Positions 8,929-17,979 of a stretch of 64,000 bases of DNA are shown here, piece after piece. The DNA lies in IMG/VR virus record IMGVR_UViG_2939521961_000011. One strand, written 5' to 3'. The position numbers and the translations under genes are program-made. The notes under the pieces are model-generated. The model searched no databases, was not told the origin of the DNA, and saw only the letters and a program-made list of their open reading frames with translations. The stretch's first letter is position 1. Each line of letters starts with the position of its first letter. The DNA is from a virus (taxonomy: Duplodnaviria > Heunggongvirae > Uroviricota > Caudoviricetes).

Positions 8929-9012
8929 TCAACCCCAGCGGCAAATCGAATAAACCACCAGCGCTACCGCCATTGCAACTCCTGCCGTTACGAATGCCTC
9001 AGGCCAGGTCAT
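8929..9012 (-). CDS. 27-aa hydrophobic peptide, conserved in both prophages
   Basis: ATG overlaps the upstream stop (ATGA); GAGGA RBS; copy at 54112-54195 differs by 5 synonymous and 3 conservative changes. Confidence 0.55.
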   Translation of the reverse strand: MTWPEAFVTAGVAMAVALVVYSICRWG

Positions 9013-9194
9013 CGTAAACTATCCTCAGCGCCAATCAGTCCGTTTCGCTTCAGGCAGTCCATCGCTTTATACGGTAATTTGGCTGACAGGCGAAAATCAC
9101 CCTGCAGCATCAGGCTTATTCCCTTATCCCGGGCTTTCGCTCTGACCGCTGCCTCGCTACGACCAATCAGACTGCCGATACTTTCGACAGTCAT
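9009..9194 (-). CDS. small HTH-like protein
   Basis: Start at ATG 9194; conserved N-terminus with copy at 55625-55879. Confidence 0.4.
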   Translation of the reverse strand: MTVESIGSLIGRSEAAVRAKARDKGISLMLQGDFRLSAKLPYKAMDCLKRNGLIGAEDSLR

Positions 9195-9253
9195 CGTTCC
9201 CGCGCACTGCCGGAGTATCAGAATTTCAGCCCGGCACCACGTCTTCCACCCAC

Positions 9254-10015
9254 TCACCGCTGCTGTTCTCTGGTGGCGGTAATATCCCGGAGAATATCCC
9301 GGCACTTGTTCAGCTCCCGCAGCGCGGCGCAGACTCGCTCCCACTTCTGAACCTGACCTTTTGCCCGGCGCAGCTCGCGGTTAGCCACATGCAGCGATGG
9401 TAAAATCAGCCCATCCGGATGCTTTCTGGTGAACGACGGCTGTGACTGCACTGTGACCGCCACACTTTCCGTTTTTATTTCTTCCTGTGTTTCCGCTTCC
9501 CGGACTGGTAACGCAACACATGCTGGCTGAGGAAAGGCTTTACCATCGGTTTCCGCTACGGATGCAGCTTCCGGCTCTGCCGGTAAATCAGCGCCCGGTA
9601 TGCAGTAACGAAATTTACCGTTCTGATTTACGCGTGCCAGGCGCCCCGTTGCTGTTACGACCGCCAACGTGGAAGCAACCTTGCGAATGCTAACACCGAA
9701 CTTATCCGCCAGTTCCTCACACGTTTTAGCCCCATCCTGACAGATAAACTCAATCATCATGTCCGCGGTAACTTTTTGTTCGACCTCCCCGGTCAGCACA
9801 TCCGGTACTTCAGACTGTGCTGGCTGTTCTTCGGTTACCCCGGATTCACCTTCACCAGCCAGAAACCAGGTGTGACCCGTTTTATCAACAACGCCATTTT
9901 TTTTGAGTTCCCACAGTTCGTTGAGAACTTCTTCACGGCTGATATCAAGCCGCGCCGCCAGTTCAACAGAATTGGCTTTACCCATCGTTTTCAGTGCATG
10001 CAATACGGTTTCCAT
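9254..10015 (-). CDS. DUF1627-like phage protein (winged-helix N-terminus)
   Basis: 253 aa; homologous copy at 55939-56700; typical of lambdoid replication/nin regions. Confidence 0.55.
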
Positions 10016-10044
10016 TAAAACTTCCTCCGGATAAAAATTACTTC

Positions 10045-10785
10045 TCAGTTCCTGTGCTGGCTGACGTTCGGACGCCAGCTCTCCCAGTTAAACGTCACCC
10101 AGCGACCACCGTTCATGGACATGCGGTCCATCACCCGCTCGCCGAGAAGTGTATTCATCGCTGCATGGTTAAGATTTGTCAGCATCCCCACACTGAGTAA
10201 CGATGCCGTTCTGCGGTCAACAATCTGATTCAGCGTGACCTGCTCATTACGCGTATCCCGTTGCATGCCAATTTCATCCAGTACCAGCAGGTCAACGCCA
10301 CACAATCCCTGCAAAAATTTTTCGCCCGAGTTTTTGTTGTCGTAGCTGCCATGTAACGCCAGCATCACATCCGCCACTGTTATCACAATCACACTGCGAC
10401 CTTTCGCCAGAAGGTGGTTGCCAATAGCCGCCGCCAGGTGGTTTTTTCCTGTGCCAGGCCTGCCACTGAAAACAAAATTCGTACAGCCGCCTTCCAGCTC
10501 TGCCGCAATGGATTTCGCCTGACTCAGGGCATGGCGCTGACCATCGTTCTGCACCCGGTAGTTACCGAACGTACACTTCCGGTGAAGCGGCTGGATACCG
10601 GAGCGGTTAATGATTTTTTCAACCCGCGTCTGATGATTCAGACGATTAACCTCCTCGCTTCGCTTACGCCCTTCAGCAAGCTGCCATTCCCGCCACTCCG
10701 TCACCGTACGGTACGGAGGGATTGCATCCTGCGGCACAAATCTGCTGACTCTTGCCAGAACACCACCTGACGTAATGTTTTTCAT
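10045..10785 (-). CDS. DnaC-like helicase loader (IstB-like AAA+ ATPase)
   Basis: Walker [12 protein letters not shown] and Walker [10 protein letters not shown] motifs; directly downstream of the O-like gene. Confidence 0.8.
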
Positions 10786-10791
10786 GATGCG

Positions 10792-11799
10792 CTACCCCCT
10801 GAAACCCGGCGGAATTTCGGTATCCGGTTCAGAAATATGATTCACGCAACGCTGCGCGGGACCACGCCACAGTCGAATAACCAGTTCATCCCATTTCTCA
10901 CGGAGTTTTTCCGGGCTCTTGATGTTTTTTATCCAGAACGGATCCCGTTGTGCCCGGCTGAACATTTCGCAAATTTGTCTGTGACTTCTTCCATCCAGCA
11001 TCCGCATTGTGCGCACGTCATTGGCCCACGCCGTCCAGTTGGGCTCTTTCGGTCGCGTGATCTCACCATCGTCACTGGCAGCCTGTTCGTACAGGTTTAC
11101 AACCCGCCCCCAGATCCACTGCGCACATGTCAAATCCTCCCGGGTTCCCCACTGGCGTTTTTTCACGCTGAACACAACTGCATCAGGATGGCGGGTTAAA
11201 AACGCCTGTTCAGCCGTCAACTCGTCCGGTTGCGAAGCGTCCGGACAAGAGAGTTTTTTATTCTCTGTTGTATTCTCTGTTGTATTCTCTGTAGGATCAT
11301 CGGGCCATTTTGACCTGATGACATTGGGCCGTTTTGAACCAATGGAACGTTTCATTTTGACCTCTTCCATCGTGTCATTTTGACCTGATGGAGTGGCGCA
11401 TTTTGACCCGATGGATTCGTTCACTTTGCCATCATCTAAAAGCGCGCTATCGTAGTTAATTGTGTAAAAATTAGTCATATCACGCTTCGATTTATTGAGC
11501 TTTTCGCTACGCAAAAGCCCCAGCGCTTTCAGACTTGCAAACGCACGCTTTAACGTTGACTCTGACCAGAACGGAAACTGTTCCAGCCATTGTTCCGTTG
11601 TGTTGTAAATCCAGCGAACGCCATCACATTCCATGCCGGAACTGGTATCCCTCAACCAGTAATGCAGTTGCTGCAACACAATGGCTTCGTTTAAACCAAT
11701 CTTCATCGCCAGCTGTGTGTTTATAACCAGCGGGCGTTCAGCAAAAAGAAGGCTCATAATTCCATCCGGCTTTTTGTTGGTACTGGTGACGATAGGCAC
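10792..11799 (-). CDS. replication initiator O-like protein
   Basis: Iterons embedded in the coding region, C-terminal region homologous to copy 2, followed by the helicase loader. Confidence 0.7.
   Translation of the reverse strand: MPIVTSTNKKPDGIMSLLFAERPLVINTQLAMKIGLNEAIVLQQLHYWLRDTSSGMECDGVRWIYNTTEQWLEQFPFWSESTLKRAFASLKALGLLRSEKLNKSKRDMTNFYTINYDSALLDDGKVNESIGSKCATPSGQNDTMEEVKMKRSIGSKRPNVIRSKWPDDPTENTTENTTENKKLSCPDASQPDELTAEQAFLTRHPDAVVFSVKKRQWGTREDLTCAQWIWGRVVNLYEQAASDDGEITRPKEPNWTAWANDVRTMRMLDGRSHRQICEMFSRAQRDPFWIKNIKSPEKLREKWDELVIRLWRGPAQRCVNHISEPDTEIPPGFRG
11305..11430. repeat. ori iterons (4-5 copies of ~CATTTTGACCTGATGG) inside the O gene, preceded by a 12-bp tandem repeat at 11262-11297
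   Basis: Direct repeats visible in sequence; lambda-like placement of ori within O. Confidence 0.7.
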
Positions 11800-12259
11800 G
11801 CTTGAAAGCGATTGCTTTTTCTATAAGCTCGTCTGTCTCACGTTCCACAACAGCTGGATCTGCAAAAAGCAGCCCGGACTCCACCACATCGCCATATTCT
11901 TTGTTTAACCCGGCAATCATGTACGTAATGCTTTTTCCGTCAGTAATTTCGCGGTACAACCTGAAATCACTAATCCGGATAGCCTCCATAATTGCCGGAA
12001 TCAGCGCCGTGAATTTTTCACGCTTATCCCTGGTGTCGATAGCCTTCCAGCGTTCGAATATCTTCACCCGGTTAACGCCCAGTGCCCGTTGATCAACCTC
12101 GCCATCATTAAACGTGATGCGTTGAACATCGATGTTCGGGCGTTCTTTCAGAGCCCAGAATGCTTCCGTGATTAATATCGTCGCCTGTTCCTGTGTCATT
12201 CCTGGTCGGCACACCCAGGCATCCAGAGCCTCACAAACCTGTTCAGGGGTGATTTTCAT
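11738..12259 (-). CDS. hypothetical protein in the cII position
   Basis: 173-aa ORF between dicC and O; positional analog of YdaT in prophage 2 but not obviously similar. Confidence 0.4.
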   Translation of the reverse strand: MKITPEQVCEALDAWVCRPGMTQEQATILITEAFWALKERPNIDVQRITFNDGEVDQRALGVNRVKIFERWKAIDTRDKREKFTALIPAIMEAIRISDFRLYREITDGKSITYMIAGLNKEYGDVVESGLLFADPAVVERETDELIEKAIAFKRAYRHQYQQKAGWNYEPSFC

Positions 12260-12473
12260 TGTTCAACCGCCCCGCCCGCTTTGCCTTACGATATTCGTCA
12301 TAAACTTTGGGGTCGTACTGAAGTTCCCCGCCGGATGCCTCTTGCAGGCGCATCGCGCGACCTTCAGGTACTAGCTCCCCTTTCCAGCTATAAAGCGAAG
12401 CCAAACGAATACCAGCAGCTTGTGCAAGTTTTGTTTTTGAACCGAAATACAAAAGTGCGTCAGTTTTAAGCAT
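12243..12473 (-). CDS. dicC: DicC, Cro-like repressor
   Basis: 76 aa, divergent from dicA, sequence as recalled for Qin DicC. Confidence 0.85.
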   Translation of the reverse strand: MLKTDALLYFGSKTKLAQAAGIRLASLYSWKGELVPEGRAMRLQEASGGELQYDPKVYDEYRKAKRAGRLNNENHP

Positions 12474-12490
12474 TTAAAGCACCTTGATTG

Positions 12491-12554
12491 TTAGCCATGA
12501 CTAACAAAATAGATGTTAACAAAAACATAGTCAATAAGATTTAGCATTAGCTAA
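12491..12554. promoter_or_regulatory. dicC-dicA intergenic operators (TTAGCCATGACTAA and TTAGCATTAGCTAA palindromes) with divergent promoters
   Basis: 14-bp palindromes at 12491-12504 and 12541-12554. Confidence 0.6.
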
Positions 12555-12556
12555 CT

Positions 12557-12964
12557 ATGGATACAAAAAATTTAACCATTGGCGAACGCATTAGATATCG
12601 CCGAAAAAACCTCAAATACACCCAAAGGTCTCTTGCTAAAGTCCTGAAAATTTCTCACGTATCGGTTTCACAATGGGAGCGGGATGATAGCGAACCTACA
12701 GGAAAGAATCTTTTTGCCCTCAGCAAAGTACTGCAGTGCTCGCCAACATGGATTCTATTTGGCGATGAAGACAAGCAGCCATCACCACCTATTGAGGAGC
12801 CAGTTGCTCTATCCCCCAAAGAACATGAGCTCCTTGAGCTTTTTAATGCATTGCCTGAATCAGAACAGGATGCTCAGCTCACCGAGATGCGCGCCCGAGT
12901 AAAAAATTTCAACAAACTCTTTGAAGAGTTATTAAAAGCCCGTCAACGAACAAACAAAAGATAA
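12557..12964 (+). CDS. dicA: DicA, CI-like HTH repressor lacking a peptidase domain
   Basis: 135 aa; N-terminal XRE HTH; sequence as recalled for Qin DicA. Confidence 0.85.
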   Translation: MDTKNLTIGERIRYRRKNLKYTQRSLAKVLKISHVSVSQWERDDSEPTGKNLFALSKVLQCSPTWILFGDEDKQPSPPIEEPVALSPKEHELLELFNALPESEQDAQLTEMRARVKNFNKLFEELLKARQRTNKR

Positions 12965-12988
12965 CGCAATCAATGCGTTATCTTTTTG
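12961..12988 (+). terminator. terminator hairpin after dicA
   Basis: TAACGCA...TGCGTTA hairpin plus T-run. Confidence 0.5.
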
Positions 12989-13001
12989 GTTGCCCAAAAT
13001 G

Positions 13002-13050
13002 TTAGTCATGGCAAACAAAAATACTTGACCAAATTGTTAGTCATGGCTAA
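13002..13050 (+). promoter_or_regulatory. dicB-operon promoter overlapped by two DicA operator palindromes (TTAGTCATGGCAAA, TTAGTCATGGCTAA)
   Basis: Operators at 13002-13015 and 13037-13050 flank a TTGACC -35 element. Confidence 0.55.
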
Positions 13051-13130
13051 TCTTGCTTGCATCAAGACACCGCACGGTGTTCTCAGCAAACAGTTCCGCT
13101 ACCCCGGCGTTAAGGGGAAATGAGGTCAAC

Positions 13131-13283
13131 ATGGATACGCTCAATCTTGGCAACAACGAATCTCTGGTATGCGGAGTATTCTCCAACCTGGACGGCACGT
13201 TTACCGCGATGACGTATACCAGAAGCAAAACGTTTAAAACTGAAGCTGGCGCGCGTCGCTGGTTAGCCAGAAACACTGACTGA
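13131..13283 (+). CDS. ydfA: YdfA (DUF1391 small protein)
   Basis: 50 aa from ATG 13131 with AAGGGGAAATGAGG RBS; copy at 60431-60583. Confidence 0.7.
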   Translation: MDTLNLGNNESLVCGVFSNLDGTFTAMTYTRSKTFKTEAGARRWLARNTD

Positions 13284-13294
13284 TGAGGTTGACG

Positions 13295-13933
13295 ATGGAA
13301 TTTAAAGATTTACCTCCTTCAATCCAGGAGATTGCAGCACACACACTTCGTCATCGTCTGAACGAACTTGAATTGGAATCGGTAACGAAAAAAGACACTG
13401 ATAATATGGCTCGTAATGTGCGCGATGCGTTTACCGGATTGTATTTCTGTGCGTCTATAAATAAACACGACTCAGAGAGTGTGGCAAATAAAATTGCAGA
13501 AACGACAGCGCAAAACATCAATACGAAACCAACGGAAGAAGAAATTGATCAGTTTGCTCATGATGCTGGTTTAAAAAACAAGAAAGAAAAATCGCCATAT
13601 GCGGGGAACATGTTTGTTTATGACAATCTCATCAGAATTCGTGGCGAAATTCCGGCGGAATACCTGGCAAGAGTCCATCAGGCATTGCTTAAAAATTTGG
13701 AAACAGAATTATTTGATGGCAACACTAACGGTTTCTTCATGGTATCAGGCCTTGAGAAAGACTGGGATGCAGAAAAACGCTGGAATGTTGCTACATGGTT
13801 ATTCAGTAACAGAGCCGCTGCACTGGAAGCTTCGGCATGTATTTGCGGCCTGTTCTTAACAGACCACAAATATAATCTGGATGTGTACAGTTATATTTAC
13901 GCTGAACACGGTCCACTCTGGATTGACTGGTAA
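13295..13933 (+). CDS. hypothetical 212-aa protein (insertion replacing ydfB-ydfC)
   Basis: GAGG RBS; no TM segments or recognizable motifs; absent from prophage 2 and from the Qin arrangement as recalled. Confidence 0.5.
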   Translation: MEFKDLPPSIQEIAAHTLRHRLNELELESVTKKDTDNMARNVRDAFTGLYFCASINKHDSESVANKIAETTAQNINTKPTEEEIDQFAHDAGLKNKKEKSPYAGNMFVYDNLIRIRGEIPAEYLARVHQALLKNLETELFDGNTNGFFMVSGLEKDWDAEKRWNVATWLFSNRAAALEASACICGLFLTDHKYNLDVYSYIYAEHGPLWIDW

Positions 13934-14143
13934 TTATAAGGAAACACCAGCAGGGCCGCGGCGACCAACAGAACGATTAAAATCAATAATGCCATTATAA
14001 AGGACATTATTTAATTTATCGTCGAATGCTGATTCTGTGAGCCTCAACTCTGAATGAGTTTTTAATAACCCTGATTGCCTGAGTTGATTTACCAGGCATT
14101 CAATCTGTTTTTCAATAAGCGGATTTCTTTTTTTGTTTGGCAT
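13934..14143 (-). CDS. hypothetical 69-aa protein, convergent partner of the 212-aa gene
   Basis: GGAGGA RBS 4 nt before ATG; 3' end abuts the stop of the 212-aa gene. Confidence 0.5.
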   Translation of the reverse strand: MPNKKRNPLIEKQIECLVNQLRQSGLLKTHSELRLTESAFDDKLNNVLYNGIIDFNRSVGRRGPAGVSL

Positions 14144-14480
14144 TTTATCCTCCATTGAGGTTCTGGGTTAAAAATGGAGACCAACACGCTGTCACGTGTG
14201 GTCGTGCGCCGGACACGGATAAGAATCCGGTACTGACAGTTTACTGAAAGGATATTTCCCTGAAAAGTCAGTGCATAACGCGAAAGCGTACGGCGAAGCT
14301 CTTTCCCTTAGAAGGCTTGTCGTTAGATTTCTTCGAACGTGCGCTTCCGGTTGTGGCACTCCGCGAAATGGCGCGGCGGTAAGTATGGCGGGGTTATTCC
14401 TTCCCCATTGAGGACACCGGGTTGTCAGGTTGACCATACGCTTAAGTGACAACCCCGCTGCAACGCCCTCTGTTATCAAT

Positions 14481-14538
14481 TTTCTGGTGACGTTTGGCGG
14501 TATCAGTTTTACTCCGTGGCTGCTCTGCCGCCCTTTTT
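14481..14538 (+). ncRNA. dicF: DicF small RNA
   Basis: Matches DicF as recalled (TTTCTGGTGACGTTTGGCGGTATCAGTTTTACTCC...CTGCTCTGCCGCCCTTTTT); followed by a conserved long-range inverted repeat at 14543-14557 / 14669-14683. Confidence 0.8.
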
Positions 14539-14707
14539 AAAGTGAATTTTGTGATGCGGTGAATGCGGCTAAGCGCACGCGGAACAGTTAAAACCAAAAA
14601 CAGTGTTATGGGTGGATTCTCTGTATCCGGCGTTAATTGTTAACTGGTTAACGTCACCTGGAGGCACCAGGCACTGCATCACAAAATTCATTGTTGAGGA
14701 CGCGATA

Positions 14708-14896
14708 ATGGAAACGTTATTACCAAACGTTAATACGTCTGAAGGTTGTTTTGATATTGGTGTTCTGCTCAGTAACCGGGAGTTTACTGAAGATGCCATT
14801 AACATGAGGAAATATGAGCCTTATCTGCTCAATGATAATTCCATACTTTCCCGAATTGCTCTTCTTGAACTTGGTATTTTCGGAGAACGTCAATGA
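14708..14896 (+). CDS. dicB: DicB cell-division inhibitor
   Basis: 62 aa starting METLLPNVNTSEGCF, downstream of dicF. Confidence 0.8.
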   Translation: METLLPNVNTSEGCFDIGVLLSNREFTEDAINMRKYEPYLLNDNSILSRIALLELGIFGERQ

Positions 14897-15081
14897 CTTC
14901 AGCATTTGCACTGATGATGACGGTTTTTCTTATAACGGGTGAATCACAGAATGTGATTACCGGAATTTATGCCAGTAAAGAATCCTGCCTCCAGGCAAGA
15001 GACGAGCAAAAAATTTCTGGTGAATGCCTCCCGGTAAAAAAAGTATCGCTGTACCTGAATAACGAAACACCGGCTGGATAA
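14893..15081 (+). CDS. ydfD: YdfD-like small protein
   Basis: 62 aa, hydrophobic N-terminus, position after dicB. Confidence 0.65.
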   Translation: MTSAFALMMTVFLITGESQNVITGIYASKESCLQARDEQKISGECLPVKKVSLYLNNETPAG

Positions 15082-15173
15082 CCCTCCAGCCATATTAACA
15101 CCATACCAACGGATTAAAAATGCCAGCAATGGCAGGGATTTGTTCACCCTTAAATCTGTAATGAGGTTTATCA

Positions 15174-17636
15174 ATGAGCACTGATAAAGAAGAATTTGCG
15201 CTATATTGCGAAGCAAAAAATGACAAAGTCAGAAAACGTCTGGGAATTAAAGGTGGTTTTTACTGGACTACAGCAAAAAAATTATCTGTTGCCATCTCCC
15301 GCTGCATTACCGCAATGGATGACAACGATTATGATGAAGACGACTTTAAAAAACCCGTTCGCGTCCATTTACCCGTTGTGAATGACCTTCCACCTGAAGG
15401 CGTGTTTGATACCGAATTCTGCAACCGATACGAAAAAGGCGGGGAAGATGGCATTACAATGGTATTTATCGCGCCCTCTCCCTCCGTGCAGGAGAAACCA
15501 GCCAGTACTGACAATACCAACGTCAACGGCGAAGACATGACGGAGATTGAGGAGAATATGCTCCTGCCGGTTTCTGGTCAGGAGCTGCCCATTCGCTGGC
15601 TTGCGCAACACGGCAGCGAAAAACCAGTAACGCACGTTGCACGGGAAGAACTTCAGGCATTACATATAGCACGGGCGGAAGAACTGCCGGCTGTTACTGC
15701 CCTGGCCATTTCTCACAAAACAAAGCTGCTCGACCCGCTGGAGATTCGCGACCTTCACAAACTGGTACGCGACACTGACAAAGTTTTCCCTAATCCCGGT
15801 AATTCAGACCTGGGACTGATAACTGCTTTTTTCGAGGCATACCTGGACGCTGACTACACTGATCGGGGTCTGCTGACAAAAGAGTGGATGAAAGGAAATC
15901 GTGTTTCGCGTATCACCCGTACGGCTTCCGGTGCAAATGCCGGTGGCGGGAACAAAACCGATCGCAATCCGAATTTAGTACACACCTTCGATACGCTGGA
16001 TGTGGAGATTGCAGCAGCCACACTTCCGATGGATTTTAATATTTATGAAATTCCGGGCAGCGTTTATCGTCGCGCAAAAGAAATCGTCCTGAAAAGAGAA
16101 AGTCCGTTCAAAGAATGGTCCGCAGCACTTCGCGCAACCCCGGGTATTCTGGACTATTCCCGCGCCGCTATTTTTGCACTTATCCGGAGCGCTCACCCTG
16201 AGTTTTATCACTACCCGGGACGCCTTCAGGGGTATATCAACGCCTACTTAACGGAGACTGATCACGAGAACCCCAGCAAGGAAACTCTCACTGCTGCACG
16301 ACATACACCGGAAAAAGATATCCTGGAAGAAGTTAACCGCGAACTGTCTGCTAAGCAGGAAACAGAAGAAGAAGAAAATGATGAAGAAAAACCGCAACCA
16401 TCTTGCGCAATGGCAGATGAACAGGCAACGGCTGAAACAGTGGAACCGGATGCAACTGAACATCATCAGGACACGCAGCCGCTGGATGCTCAGTCACAGG
16501 TAAATTCTGTTGATGCGAAATATCAGAAACTGCGGGCAGAACTCCATGAAGCCCGGAAAAACATTCCGCCCCCAAACCCTGTCGATGCAGACAAATTACT
16601 GGCTGCCTCTCGCGGAGAATTTGTTGAAGGGATTAGCGACCCGAATGATCCGAAATGGATTAAGGGGATCCAGACCCGCGATTCTGTGTACCAGAACCAG
16701 CAAGAAACGGAACAGAACGACCAGAAAGCGGAACAAAACAGCCCAAATGCGTTACAAAACGAGCCAGAAACGAAACAGCCTGAACCAGTGGCGCAACAGG
16801 AAGTGGAAAAAGTCTGCACCGCCTGCGGTCAGACCGGCGGCGGCAACTGCCCTGATTGTGGCGCTGTGATGGGCGACGCAACATACCAGGAAACATTCGA
16901 TGACAAGAACCTGGTTGAAGTTCAGGAAGACGATTCGGAGAAAATGGAAGGCGCTGAACATCCACACAAGGAGAATGCTGGCAGCGCTCAGGACCACGCC
17001 AGCGATAGTGAAACTGGCGAGACGGCAGATCCCTTAATTACGGTGAACGGTCATCACGTTATCACATCCACCAGCAGGACGTGTGACCATCTAATGATCG
17101 ACCTTGAAACCATGGGAAAAAATCCTGATGCCCCGATTATCTCAATAGGTGCAATATTTTTCGATCCGCAAACCGGAGATATGGGACCGGAATTTAGTAA
17201 GACTATCGATCTGGAAACTGCTGGCGGAGTCATTGATCGGGACACCATTAAATGGTGGCTTAAGCAATCACGCGAAGCGCAATCTGCCATTATGACCGAT
17301 GAAATCCCGTTAGATGATGCACTGTTACAATTGCGGGAATTTATCGACGAAAACTCCGGTGAATTTTTTGTTCAGGTCTGGGGAAATGGAGCCAACTTCG
17401 ACAACACGATTTTGCGCCGTTCATACGAACGGCAGGGGATCCCCTGCCCGTGGCGTTACTACAACGATCGCGATGTGCGCACAATCGTTGAGCTGGGGAA
17501 AGCCATAGACTTCGATGCCAGAACGGCTATTCCATTCGAAGGTGAGCGCCATAATGCACTTGATGACGCCCGTTACCAGGCAAAATACGTTTCAGTTATC
17601 TGGCAAAAACTGATCCCGAGTCAGGCTGATTCTTAA
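15174..17636 (+). CDS. RecE-like N-terminal/central scaffold fused to a C-terminal DEDDh (DnaQ-like) 3'-5' exonuclease domain; intact YdfE-type protein
   Basis: Central region near-identical to the recE-like gene of prophage 2 ([18 protein letters not shown], zinc ribbon CxxC...CPDCG); C-terminus has DEDDh motifs ([25 protein letters not shown]). Confidence 0.7.
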
Positions 17637-17708
17637 TGTTCAACTGTCGCCGGTTGTGACTGGTATTCTGCAACCGGCGCTCGTCTGATGTAAGAGATAA
17701 AGAAAGCG

Positions 17709-17960
17709 ATGAGCGAAGTAATCATGATTGTCTCTCCCGGCAAATGGGTATCCGAAGAGCAGTTAATTGCGCTGAAAGGAATAAAAAAAGGTACGTTAAA
17801 AAAGGCCCGGGAAAAATCGTTTATGGAAGGAAGGGAATATAAGCATGTCGCTCATGACGGTATGCCATGGGATAACAGTCCATGCTTTTACAACCTGGAA
17901 GAAATTGATCGCTGGATTGAGCGCCAGGCATCTGCAAGACCAAGACGTCATCTTGCTTGA
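17709..17960 (+). CDS. xis: excisionase-like protein
   Basis: Small basic protein immediately upstream of int. Confidence 0.5.
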   Translation: MSEVIMIVSPGKWVSEEQLIALKGIKKGTLKKAREKSFMEGREYKHVAHDGMPWDNSPCFYNLEEIDRWIERQASARPRRHLA

Positions 17961-17979
17961 CTAAAAGCAACACGAACCA

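Follow-up and report, generated by a model that had tools for sequence, protein, structure and literature searches.

Two-part architecture of the exonuclease gene

We analysed a 64,000-nucleotide (nt) stretch of viral DNA (IMG/VR record IMGVR_UViG_2939521961_000011, class Caudoviricetes), here called the window, and in it a gene that joins a RecE-type N-terminal region to a DEDDh exonuclease domain. The gene lies in the early region of a prophage, where the order is dicC, a DicA-like repressor, DUF1391, an open reading frame (ORF) of 216 amino acids (aa), DicF, dicB, DUF1482/ydfD, the exonuclease, xis and int (Table 1). Window positions 1-19327 are at least 99.95% identical to a prophage of Escherichia coli O26:H11 11368, except for about 1.26 kb (2001-3264). 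The RefSeq annotation of that prophage therefore applies to this part of the window.

The exonuclease ORF is confirmed as complete. It starts with ATG, has a GAGG 7 nt upstream, and encodes a protein identical to WP_000102117.1, named "exonuclease" in RefSeq. Two Pfam domains were recognized in it: PF06630 (Exonuc_VIII), the N-terminal family of RecE, and PF16473, the Rv2179c-like 3'-5' exoribonuclease family.

An earlier sequence-only reading had placed DnaQ-like DEDDh motifs at the C-terminus, and both domain and structure searches bear this out. PF16473 matched over profile positions 2-177 of 177 (E=1.5e-67), with 227 bits against a gathering cut-off of 27. The motifs IDLETMG (642-648), WGNGANFDN (736-744) and HNALDDARY (793-801) contain all five catalytic residues, D643, E645, D743, H793 and D798, in the pattern D-x-E, D, H-x4-D. 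These align with D7, E9, D119, H186 and D191 of T4 DexA (gene from NC_000866), and the columns are invariant across the alignments. DexA was the sole solved structure reached by sequence, with E=1.6e-6 for the single sequence and E=5e-15 for the family profile. The AlphaFold2 model of residues 620-820 (mean pLDDT 86.9) has the RNase H-like DEDD fold. Foldseek placed it closest to DexA (E=4.5e-11, TM 0.69-0.72), followed by RNase T, the DnaQ domain, REXO2/Orn and Cap18; ERI1 was also among the structural neighbours. The DEDDh assignment is solid. Membership in this superfamily points to a 3'-5' polarity, and a two-metal 3'-5' exonuclease activity can be predicted with high confidence.

Upstream of this domain the protein resembles RecE. 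BLASTP against a K-12-like RecE gave 62% identity between residues 58-623 and RecE residues 50-592, and no similarity past that point. The NCBIfam RecE equivalog NF007259 aligned residues 1-623 with profile positions 1-603 of 877, and the alignment then ended. In RecE, the nuclease domain spans residues 564-866, and the N-terminal part is "of unknown function" (review PMC11611040). The junction therefore falls at the RecE domain boundary. Neither PF12684 nor any other PD-(D/E)XK family was matched by Pfam in the 820-aa protein, while both RecE proteins have such a match, and RecE residues 601-866 found nothing in the gene by tblastn. The protein thus shares with RecE (exonuclease VIII of Rac) about 600 homologous N-terminal residues, 62% identical overall and 90-95% in blocks, the acidic linker, the zinc-ribbon-like motif and the early-left operon slot upstream of xis and int. 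It differs in its catalytic domain, an unrelated DEDDh fold that implies 3'-5' rather than 5'-3' polarity, and no recT follows it. The toroidal tetramer of the RecE nuclease domain should not be assumed for it. The DEDDh domain occupies the position of the PD-(D/E)XK 5'-3' nuclease, and a nuclease-domain swap, as the sequence-only reading had proposed, is supported.

Several phage records label proteins of the 820-aa type "exodeoxyribonuclease VIII". Together with the RecE-like N-terminal 620 residues and the RecE/RecT-type prophage within the same window, this would fit a true RecE, a 5'-3' double-stranded DNA exonuclease that uses the RecT of another prophage. However, the NF007259 score (1000) is below the cut-off (1269), with the profile alignment broken off as described. 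The missing PD-(D/E)XK domain refutes a RecE identity at the sequence level, leaving it practically no chance.

Table 1 Features of the window. Residue numbers refer to the 820-aa exonuclease.
Feature	Position	Strand	Basis or remark
dicC/cro-like gene	12243-12473	-	divergent from repressor
DicA/cI-type helix-turn-helix (HTH) repressor	12557..12964	+	head of early-left region; divergent from dicC/cro-like gene
DicF small RNA (sRNA)	14482..14533	+	Rfam RF00039, 75 bits vs gathering score 48
dicB (cell-division inhibitor) and ydfD-like DUF1482 gene	14708..15081	+	directly upstream of exonuclease
Fusion gene: RecE-type N-terminal region and DEDDh (predicted 3'-5') exonuclease	15174..17636	+	complete ORF, 820 aa + stop
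Small alpha/beta module, residues 1-90	15174..15443	+	full-length AlphaFold2 model, block pLDDT 70-89, moderate to good confidence
PF06630 Exonuc_VIII match, residues 57-189	15342..15740	+	Pfam E=2.6e-34; 90-95% identity to K-12-like RecE at residues 121-260
Helical domain, residues 270-380	15981..16313	+	pLDDT 75-92, confident
Acidic linker, mostly predicted disordered, residues 381-636	16314..17081	+	AlphaFold2 model, composition
CxxC-x7-CxxC zinc-ribbon-like motif, residues 548-562	16815..16859	+	sequence comparison
DEDDh (DnaQ-like) 3'-5' exonuclease domain, PF16473 / T4 DexA family	17088..17603	+	residues 639-810
Excisionase, DUF1233	17709-17960	+	starts 72 nt after exonuclease stop codon
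Tyrosine integrase	17980-19275	+	directly after excisionase
recE of second, Rac-type prophage, PD-(D/E)XK paralogue	61843..64000	+	first 719 codons, no stop, runs off window

The head and linker were divided into segments on the full-length AlphaFold2 model. Between the small N-terminal module and the helical domain lies a weakly predicted stretch (residues 130-250). In the alignment consensus the helical domain is the best-conserved part of the scaffold, common to RecE and, distantly, to a second head type described below. The linker contains low-confidence stretches (398-441, 499-546 and 562-634) ahead of the nuclease, and a conserved motif at residues about 471-497. Its CxxC-x7-CxxC motif occurs in 5 of the 18 aligned sequences; it is common to RecE and the 823-aa variant and not present in diverged homologues. 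Sequence and structure searches found no solved relative or known fold for the N-terminal region.

Identity to the K-12-like RecE varies strongly by block: 90-95% for residues 121-240, 25-37% for 281-400 and 70-92% for 401-520. On these alignments the head is a mosaic, so the conserved scaffold that was part of the domain-swap proposal does not hold as a uniform one. The central region of the protein had also been called near-identical to the recE gene of the window, which overstates the match. Two segments of the exonuclease gene show 91% (gene nt 1188-1539 vs window 63027-63381) and 83% (1598-1865 vs 63398-63665) nucleotide identity, and the proteins are 49% identical over residues 57-623. 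High similarity between the two is limited to residues 401-600, that is, to segments of the linker.

The same tail is found on a second head. An 823-aa exonuclease of phage Tritos, E. coli B and IHE3034 is 89% identical by BLASTP from about residue 470 to the end, and its exonuclease domain is identical to that of the 820-aa protein. Its first 450 residues are related to the 820-aa head only distantly (22% identity, E=8e-08). K-12 YdfE, which the sequence-only reading had named for comparison, belongs to this second type and is not a RecE-type head: ydfE of the Qin prophage (locus L014, 3079-3999) is the truncated front of the 823-aa variant, its first 256 residues, 99% identical to Tritos and cut by IS2E. 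This leaves K-12 without the DEDDh domain. No significant BLASTP similarity was found between YdfE and the N-terminus of the 820-aa protein. In locus position the two genes agree: ydfE, too, is preceded by dicB and ydfD and followed by int. The DEDDh tail also occurs alone, as proteins of 180-190 aa; in Salmonella prophages a stand-alone 189-aa form lies directly ahead of xis and int. RecE-type heads thus carry either a PD-(D/E)XK or a DEDDh tail, and the DEDDh tail follows either a RecE-type or a YdfE-type head, so the family is modular in both directions.

The exonuclease is widespread. Among 5426 complete E. coli genomes, 4048 contain the DNA of the exonuclease domain at a coverage of at least 80%, with up to 7 copies, and 1275 contain the whole gene. 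The exact 820-aa protein was found on at least 1000 contigs, and the cluster of the 823-aa variant has 23,183 member sequences. At E <=0.001 the exonuclease family comprises 12,150 representative clusters. It is present in 1617 of 50,697 phage records, a count that takes in T4-like DexA (about 28% identity). Both Exonuc_VIII and PF16473 are retained by eight of ten diverged long homologues, whose exonuclease domains show 55-83% identity. In pairwise comparisons the ratio of nonsynonymous to synonymous substitutions (dN/dS) was 0.03-0.2 for the exonuclease domain; the N-terminal region gave 0.18-0.5.

These data also bear on a functionless chimera, born of recombination between resident lambdoid prophages and now decaying neutrally. 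The RecE-identity blocks of 90-95% beside blocks of 25-37% would fit such an origin. So would the second head type on the same tail and the disrupted copies (K-12 ydfE by IS2E, a frameshift in PPompW, and recE by IS600). In contrast, ORFs are intact across thousands of genomes, dN/dS is well under 1 in both halves and the catalytic residues are invariant. The architecture is kept at 55-73% identity in other enterobacteria, and phage Tritos, whose lambdoid genome is complete, has it too. A decaying chimera is very unlikely. Given its prevalence, retained domains and low dN/dS, the exonuclease gene is maintained and is not debris.

The early-left operon and the missing annealase

The sequence-only reading had found no recT next to the gene, with xis and int following instead, and annotation and tblastn agree. 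No annealase, single-stranded DNA-binding protein (SSB) or RecBCD inhibitor lies between the repressor and int. RecT and the RecE nuclease domain were likewise negative by tblastn at the window locus and at all related loci examined. The same annealase-free layout was found in phages vB_EcoS-640R1, Tritos and PPompW, and in O157:H7, IHE3034 and E. coli B. Diverged enterobacterial homologues (exonuclease domain 59-73% identical) show either repressor, small genes, exonuclease, xis and int, or kilR, exonuclease and int. Across the annotated complete genome of phage Tritos there is no annealase at all. At the examined loci, whether recT is present varies with the type of tail.

A further diverged homologue of 901 aa (locus L016, 63-4399) combines Exonuc_VIII, YdfE_C and PF16473, and lies between kilR and an integrase. 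Its locus is a Rac-like early region with the DEDDh enzyme in place of recE-recT.

This class of module has been described. The Rec modules of lambdoid phages include DnaQ-like 3'-5' nucleases, and a "Tritos" class was defined by a nuclease without single-strand annealing protein (SAP), SSB or anti-RecBCD, and with many Chi sites; one-gene Rec modules may rely on host functions (Zheng et al. 2025, Genome Res, PMC12315714). The window locus has the layout of the Tritos-type module (dicF, dicB, ydfD, exonuclease, xis, int) and no SAP, SSB or anti-RecBCD gene. The Tritos exonuclease shares the last ~355 residues with the 820-aa protein (the 89% BLASTP match, with the exonuclease domain identical), and differs in its head, which is YdfE-type and not RecE-type (PF06630). 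Chi sites number 4 in the 19.3 kb of the exonuclease-bearing prophage, two per strand, of which the window covers the early region only; phage Tritos has 9 on the top and 2 on the bottom strand.

A Chi site (GCTGGTGG, 17068-17075, minus strand) lies inside the exonuclease gene itself, shortly before the DEDDh domain, and is conserved at the corresponding position of phage Tritos (locus L006, 27079). Over the whole window 16 Chi sites were counted, where shuffled sequences lead one to expect 2.5.

The locus thus offers nothing new in kind, contrary to the novelty that the sequence-only reading implied: the architecture is common and has been catalogued before. PF06630 and PF16473 both stand in the precomputed Pfam annotation, and newer families such as PF27432 (YdfE_C) exist. 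RefSeq names the proteins "exonuclease" or "3'-5' exoribonuclease domain-containing protein". PHROG 2082, an 823-position model named "exonuclease", matches the C-terminal half of the 820-aa protein with profile positions 440-822. In the literature we found no paper that spells out the swap between RecE head and DEDDh tail.

Function and competing explanations

We consider it probable that the gene encodes a modular prophage nuclease, with a RecE-type head and a DexA-family DEDDh tail, which is made on induction and works without a phage annealase. It is most likely a 3'-5' DNA exonuclease expressed from a DicA-type-repressed dicB operon. In K-12 Qin, transcription that starts at the DicA-repressed dicB promoter continues across ydfD and ydfE as far as intQ (bioRxiv 10.1101/2024.09.21.614188). 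The exonuclease gene would accordingly be the last cargo gene of a DicA/cI-repressed early-left (dicB) transcription unit, and the protein would be made on derepression or induction, not in the quiet lysogen. Its C-terminal domain would remove nucleotides from free 3' ends, most probably of DNA. It would act without a dedicated annealase. Phage recombination would therefore depend on host RecA/RecBCD, as proposed for the Tritos class. The shared N-terminal region would be a nuclease-independent targeting or assembly module able to carry either nuclease. Candidate roles are the trimming of 3' ends in phage DNA replication or recombination, and the breakdown of host or competitor DNA. The sequence-only reading had put forward recombination and action against plasmids or phages as possible roles.

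Several points weigh against this reading. Polarity and substrate are drawn from family membership, and because the Pfam family bears the name of an exoribonuclease, the substrate may instead be RNA. Expression limited to induction is extrapolated from K-12 Qin. No promoter-like site was found on the plus strand in the scanned region 12300-19500, which neither supports nor excludes independent expression. Further, 3'-5' nucleases usually inhibit recombination, and 3'-5' single-stranded DNA exonucleases generally depress it (PMC12315714), so a pro-recombination role is not obvious. As the N-terminal region matches no known fold or family, its targeting role is a conjecture.

DNA is the more plausible substrate, with a chance somewhat above even, because DexA is the nearest relative and because distant phage homologues adjoin helicase, primase and ligase genes, as well as methylase genes. 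An Rv2179c-like exoribonuclease would instead act on RNA 3' ends, of host or phage transcripts or of sRNAs such as the co-transcribed DicF, which lies 640 nt upstream in the same direction of transcription. The Pfam family takes its name from the Mycobacterium tuberculosis 3'-5' exoribonuclease Rv2179c, the RefSeq name is sometimes "3'-5' exoribonuclease", and RNase T, oligoribonuclease/REXO2 and ERI1 are among the structural neighbours. However, many DEDDh enzymes cut both nucleic acids, which makes the family name weak evidence, and a DNA exonuclease, DexA, is nearest by sequence as well as by structure. The gene also stands where the early-left operon has its recombination nuclease, its head is derived from RecE, and its distant phage relatives lie beside DNA replication genes. 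We regard an RNA-directed enzyme as quite unlikely.

The DexA relationship raises another explanation, an anti-phage exonuclease of the HREX/EcD kind, which would spare unmodified host DNA and destroy the 5-hydroxymethylcytosine (5hmC)-modified DNA of T-even phages. The DexA structure has been solved, and a homologue from E. coli, EcD, is reported to break down T4 DNA and to protect the cells (Kang et al. 2025, NAR, PMC12153337). Among the bacterial DexA homologues in Table S3 of that study are WP_000102110.1, WP_000048320.1, WP_000048327.1, WP_000048433.1 and WP_000048437.1. These accession numbers adjoin WP_000102117.1, the 820-aa protein, and WP_000048322.1 and WP_000048435.1, two 823-aa variants, which suggests that the family of the 820-aa protein is within that homologue set.

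T4 DexA (exonuclease A, a 3'-5' DNA exonuclease; PDB 8KEL/8KEN) is only about 22-28% identical to the tail of the 820-aa protein. It is a stand-alone protein of 227 aa with extra loops, from a virulent phage with modified DNA. Its W152 and D169, proposed to recognize 5hmC, correspond to Y763 and A777, although at ~24% identity the alignment of the D169 region is uncertain. The DexA "tetramer" residue D90 is kept as D714 and is Ala in EcD. EcD, compared here by its description, is likewise an E. coli member of this exonuclease family. It is, however, a short stand-alone protein that starts at the catalytic motif, whereas the 820-aa protein adds a 620-residue RecE-type head. The gene also lies inside a repressor-controlled early operon, and no PADLOC defence model matched. 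An anti-phage exonuclease of the HREX/EcD kind is unlikely.

A further reading, which we rate as rather unlikely as a whole, concerns the head. The RecE-type N-terminal region may be a nuclease-independent delivery or assembly module, perhaps one that binds DNA ends or a host factor. If true, the same module would sit interchangeably on a 5'-3' PD-(D/E)XK nuclease, with RecT, or on a 3'-5' DEDDh nuclease, without an annealase. In cells that have both enzymes, as in the window, targeting to the same sites could lead to the degradation of both strands of linear DNA. This would point to a function independent of recombination, for example the destruction of foreign or host linear DNA.

The main value of the gene is the correction of its annotation, together with a natural experiment on the RecE N-terminal region. 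The name "exodeoxyribonuclease VIII", used in many phage records, misleads as to both catalytic domain and polarity, and correcting it is of practical value. In roughly three of every four complete E. coli genomes a predicted 3'-5' exonuclease occupies the lambdoid recombination slot; enterohaemorrhagic E. coli O26 and O157 have multiple copies. The naturally exchanged heads and tails can be used to study the N-terminal two thirds of RecE, a part that enhances linear-linear recombineering. The gene bears on two recent claims as well: that lambdoid phages with a nuclease only and many Chi sites depend on host RecBCD, and that DexA homologues of E. coli protect against T-even phages.

The second prophage and further features of the window

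The window holds two lambdoid prophages in tandem and in the same orientation. The second starts just past the integrase and attachment site of the first, with a DinI-like gene (19348-19695). Near its start lies a gene for the type III effector metalloprotease NleC (20066-21052, minus strand) with an HEIIHH motif, followed by a collagen-repeat tail fibre gene (21753-23081, minus strand).

At the far end of the window lies the genuine recE of this prophage. The final 102 codons in the window match the beginning of the RecE PD-(D/E)XK domain at 98% identity, and in genomes with an identical sequence the genes after recE are recT, ralR, xis and int. Compared with the K-12-like RecE (locus L002, 6719-9319, minus strand), it diverges sharply at about residues 100-218, and nt 302-655 have no blastn match to the K-12-like gene. 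Over this block the 820-aa exonuclease and the K-12-like RecE share 90-95% identity, which argues for an exchange of blocks among paralogous prophage genes. In several O26 genomes the window-identical recE is split by IS600 (locus L023, 5844-9762); the copy in the window is unbroken.

In the first prophage, DicF lies between ydfA-like genes and dicB, which gives it a complete dicBF-type division-inhibition cassette. The 216-aa ORF of the early-left operon (13283-13933, plus strand) stands at the place of K-12 ydfB and ydfC and matched nothing in Pfam or PADLOC. Its RefSeq version, placed by offset from the locus, is 13295-13933, a hypothetical protein of about 212 aa (WP_000394548.1). The 1.26-kb stretch missing from O26:H11 11368 contains a 272-aa ORF (2044-2862, minus strand) and is possibly an insertion sequence element. 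The early-right region encodes a RelE/ParE toxin and its HTH partner (6895-7266 and about 7259-7576, plus strand) and the hokD toxin (about 7679-7834, minus strand), with coordinates offset from the RefSeq annotation of the identical O26 locus.

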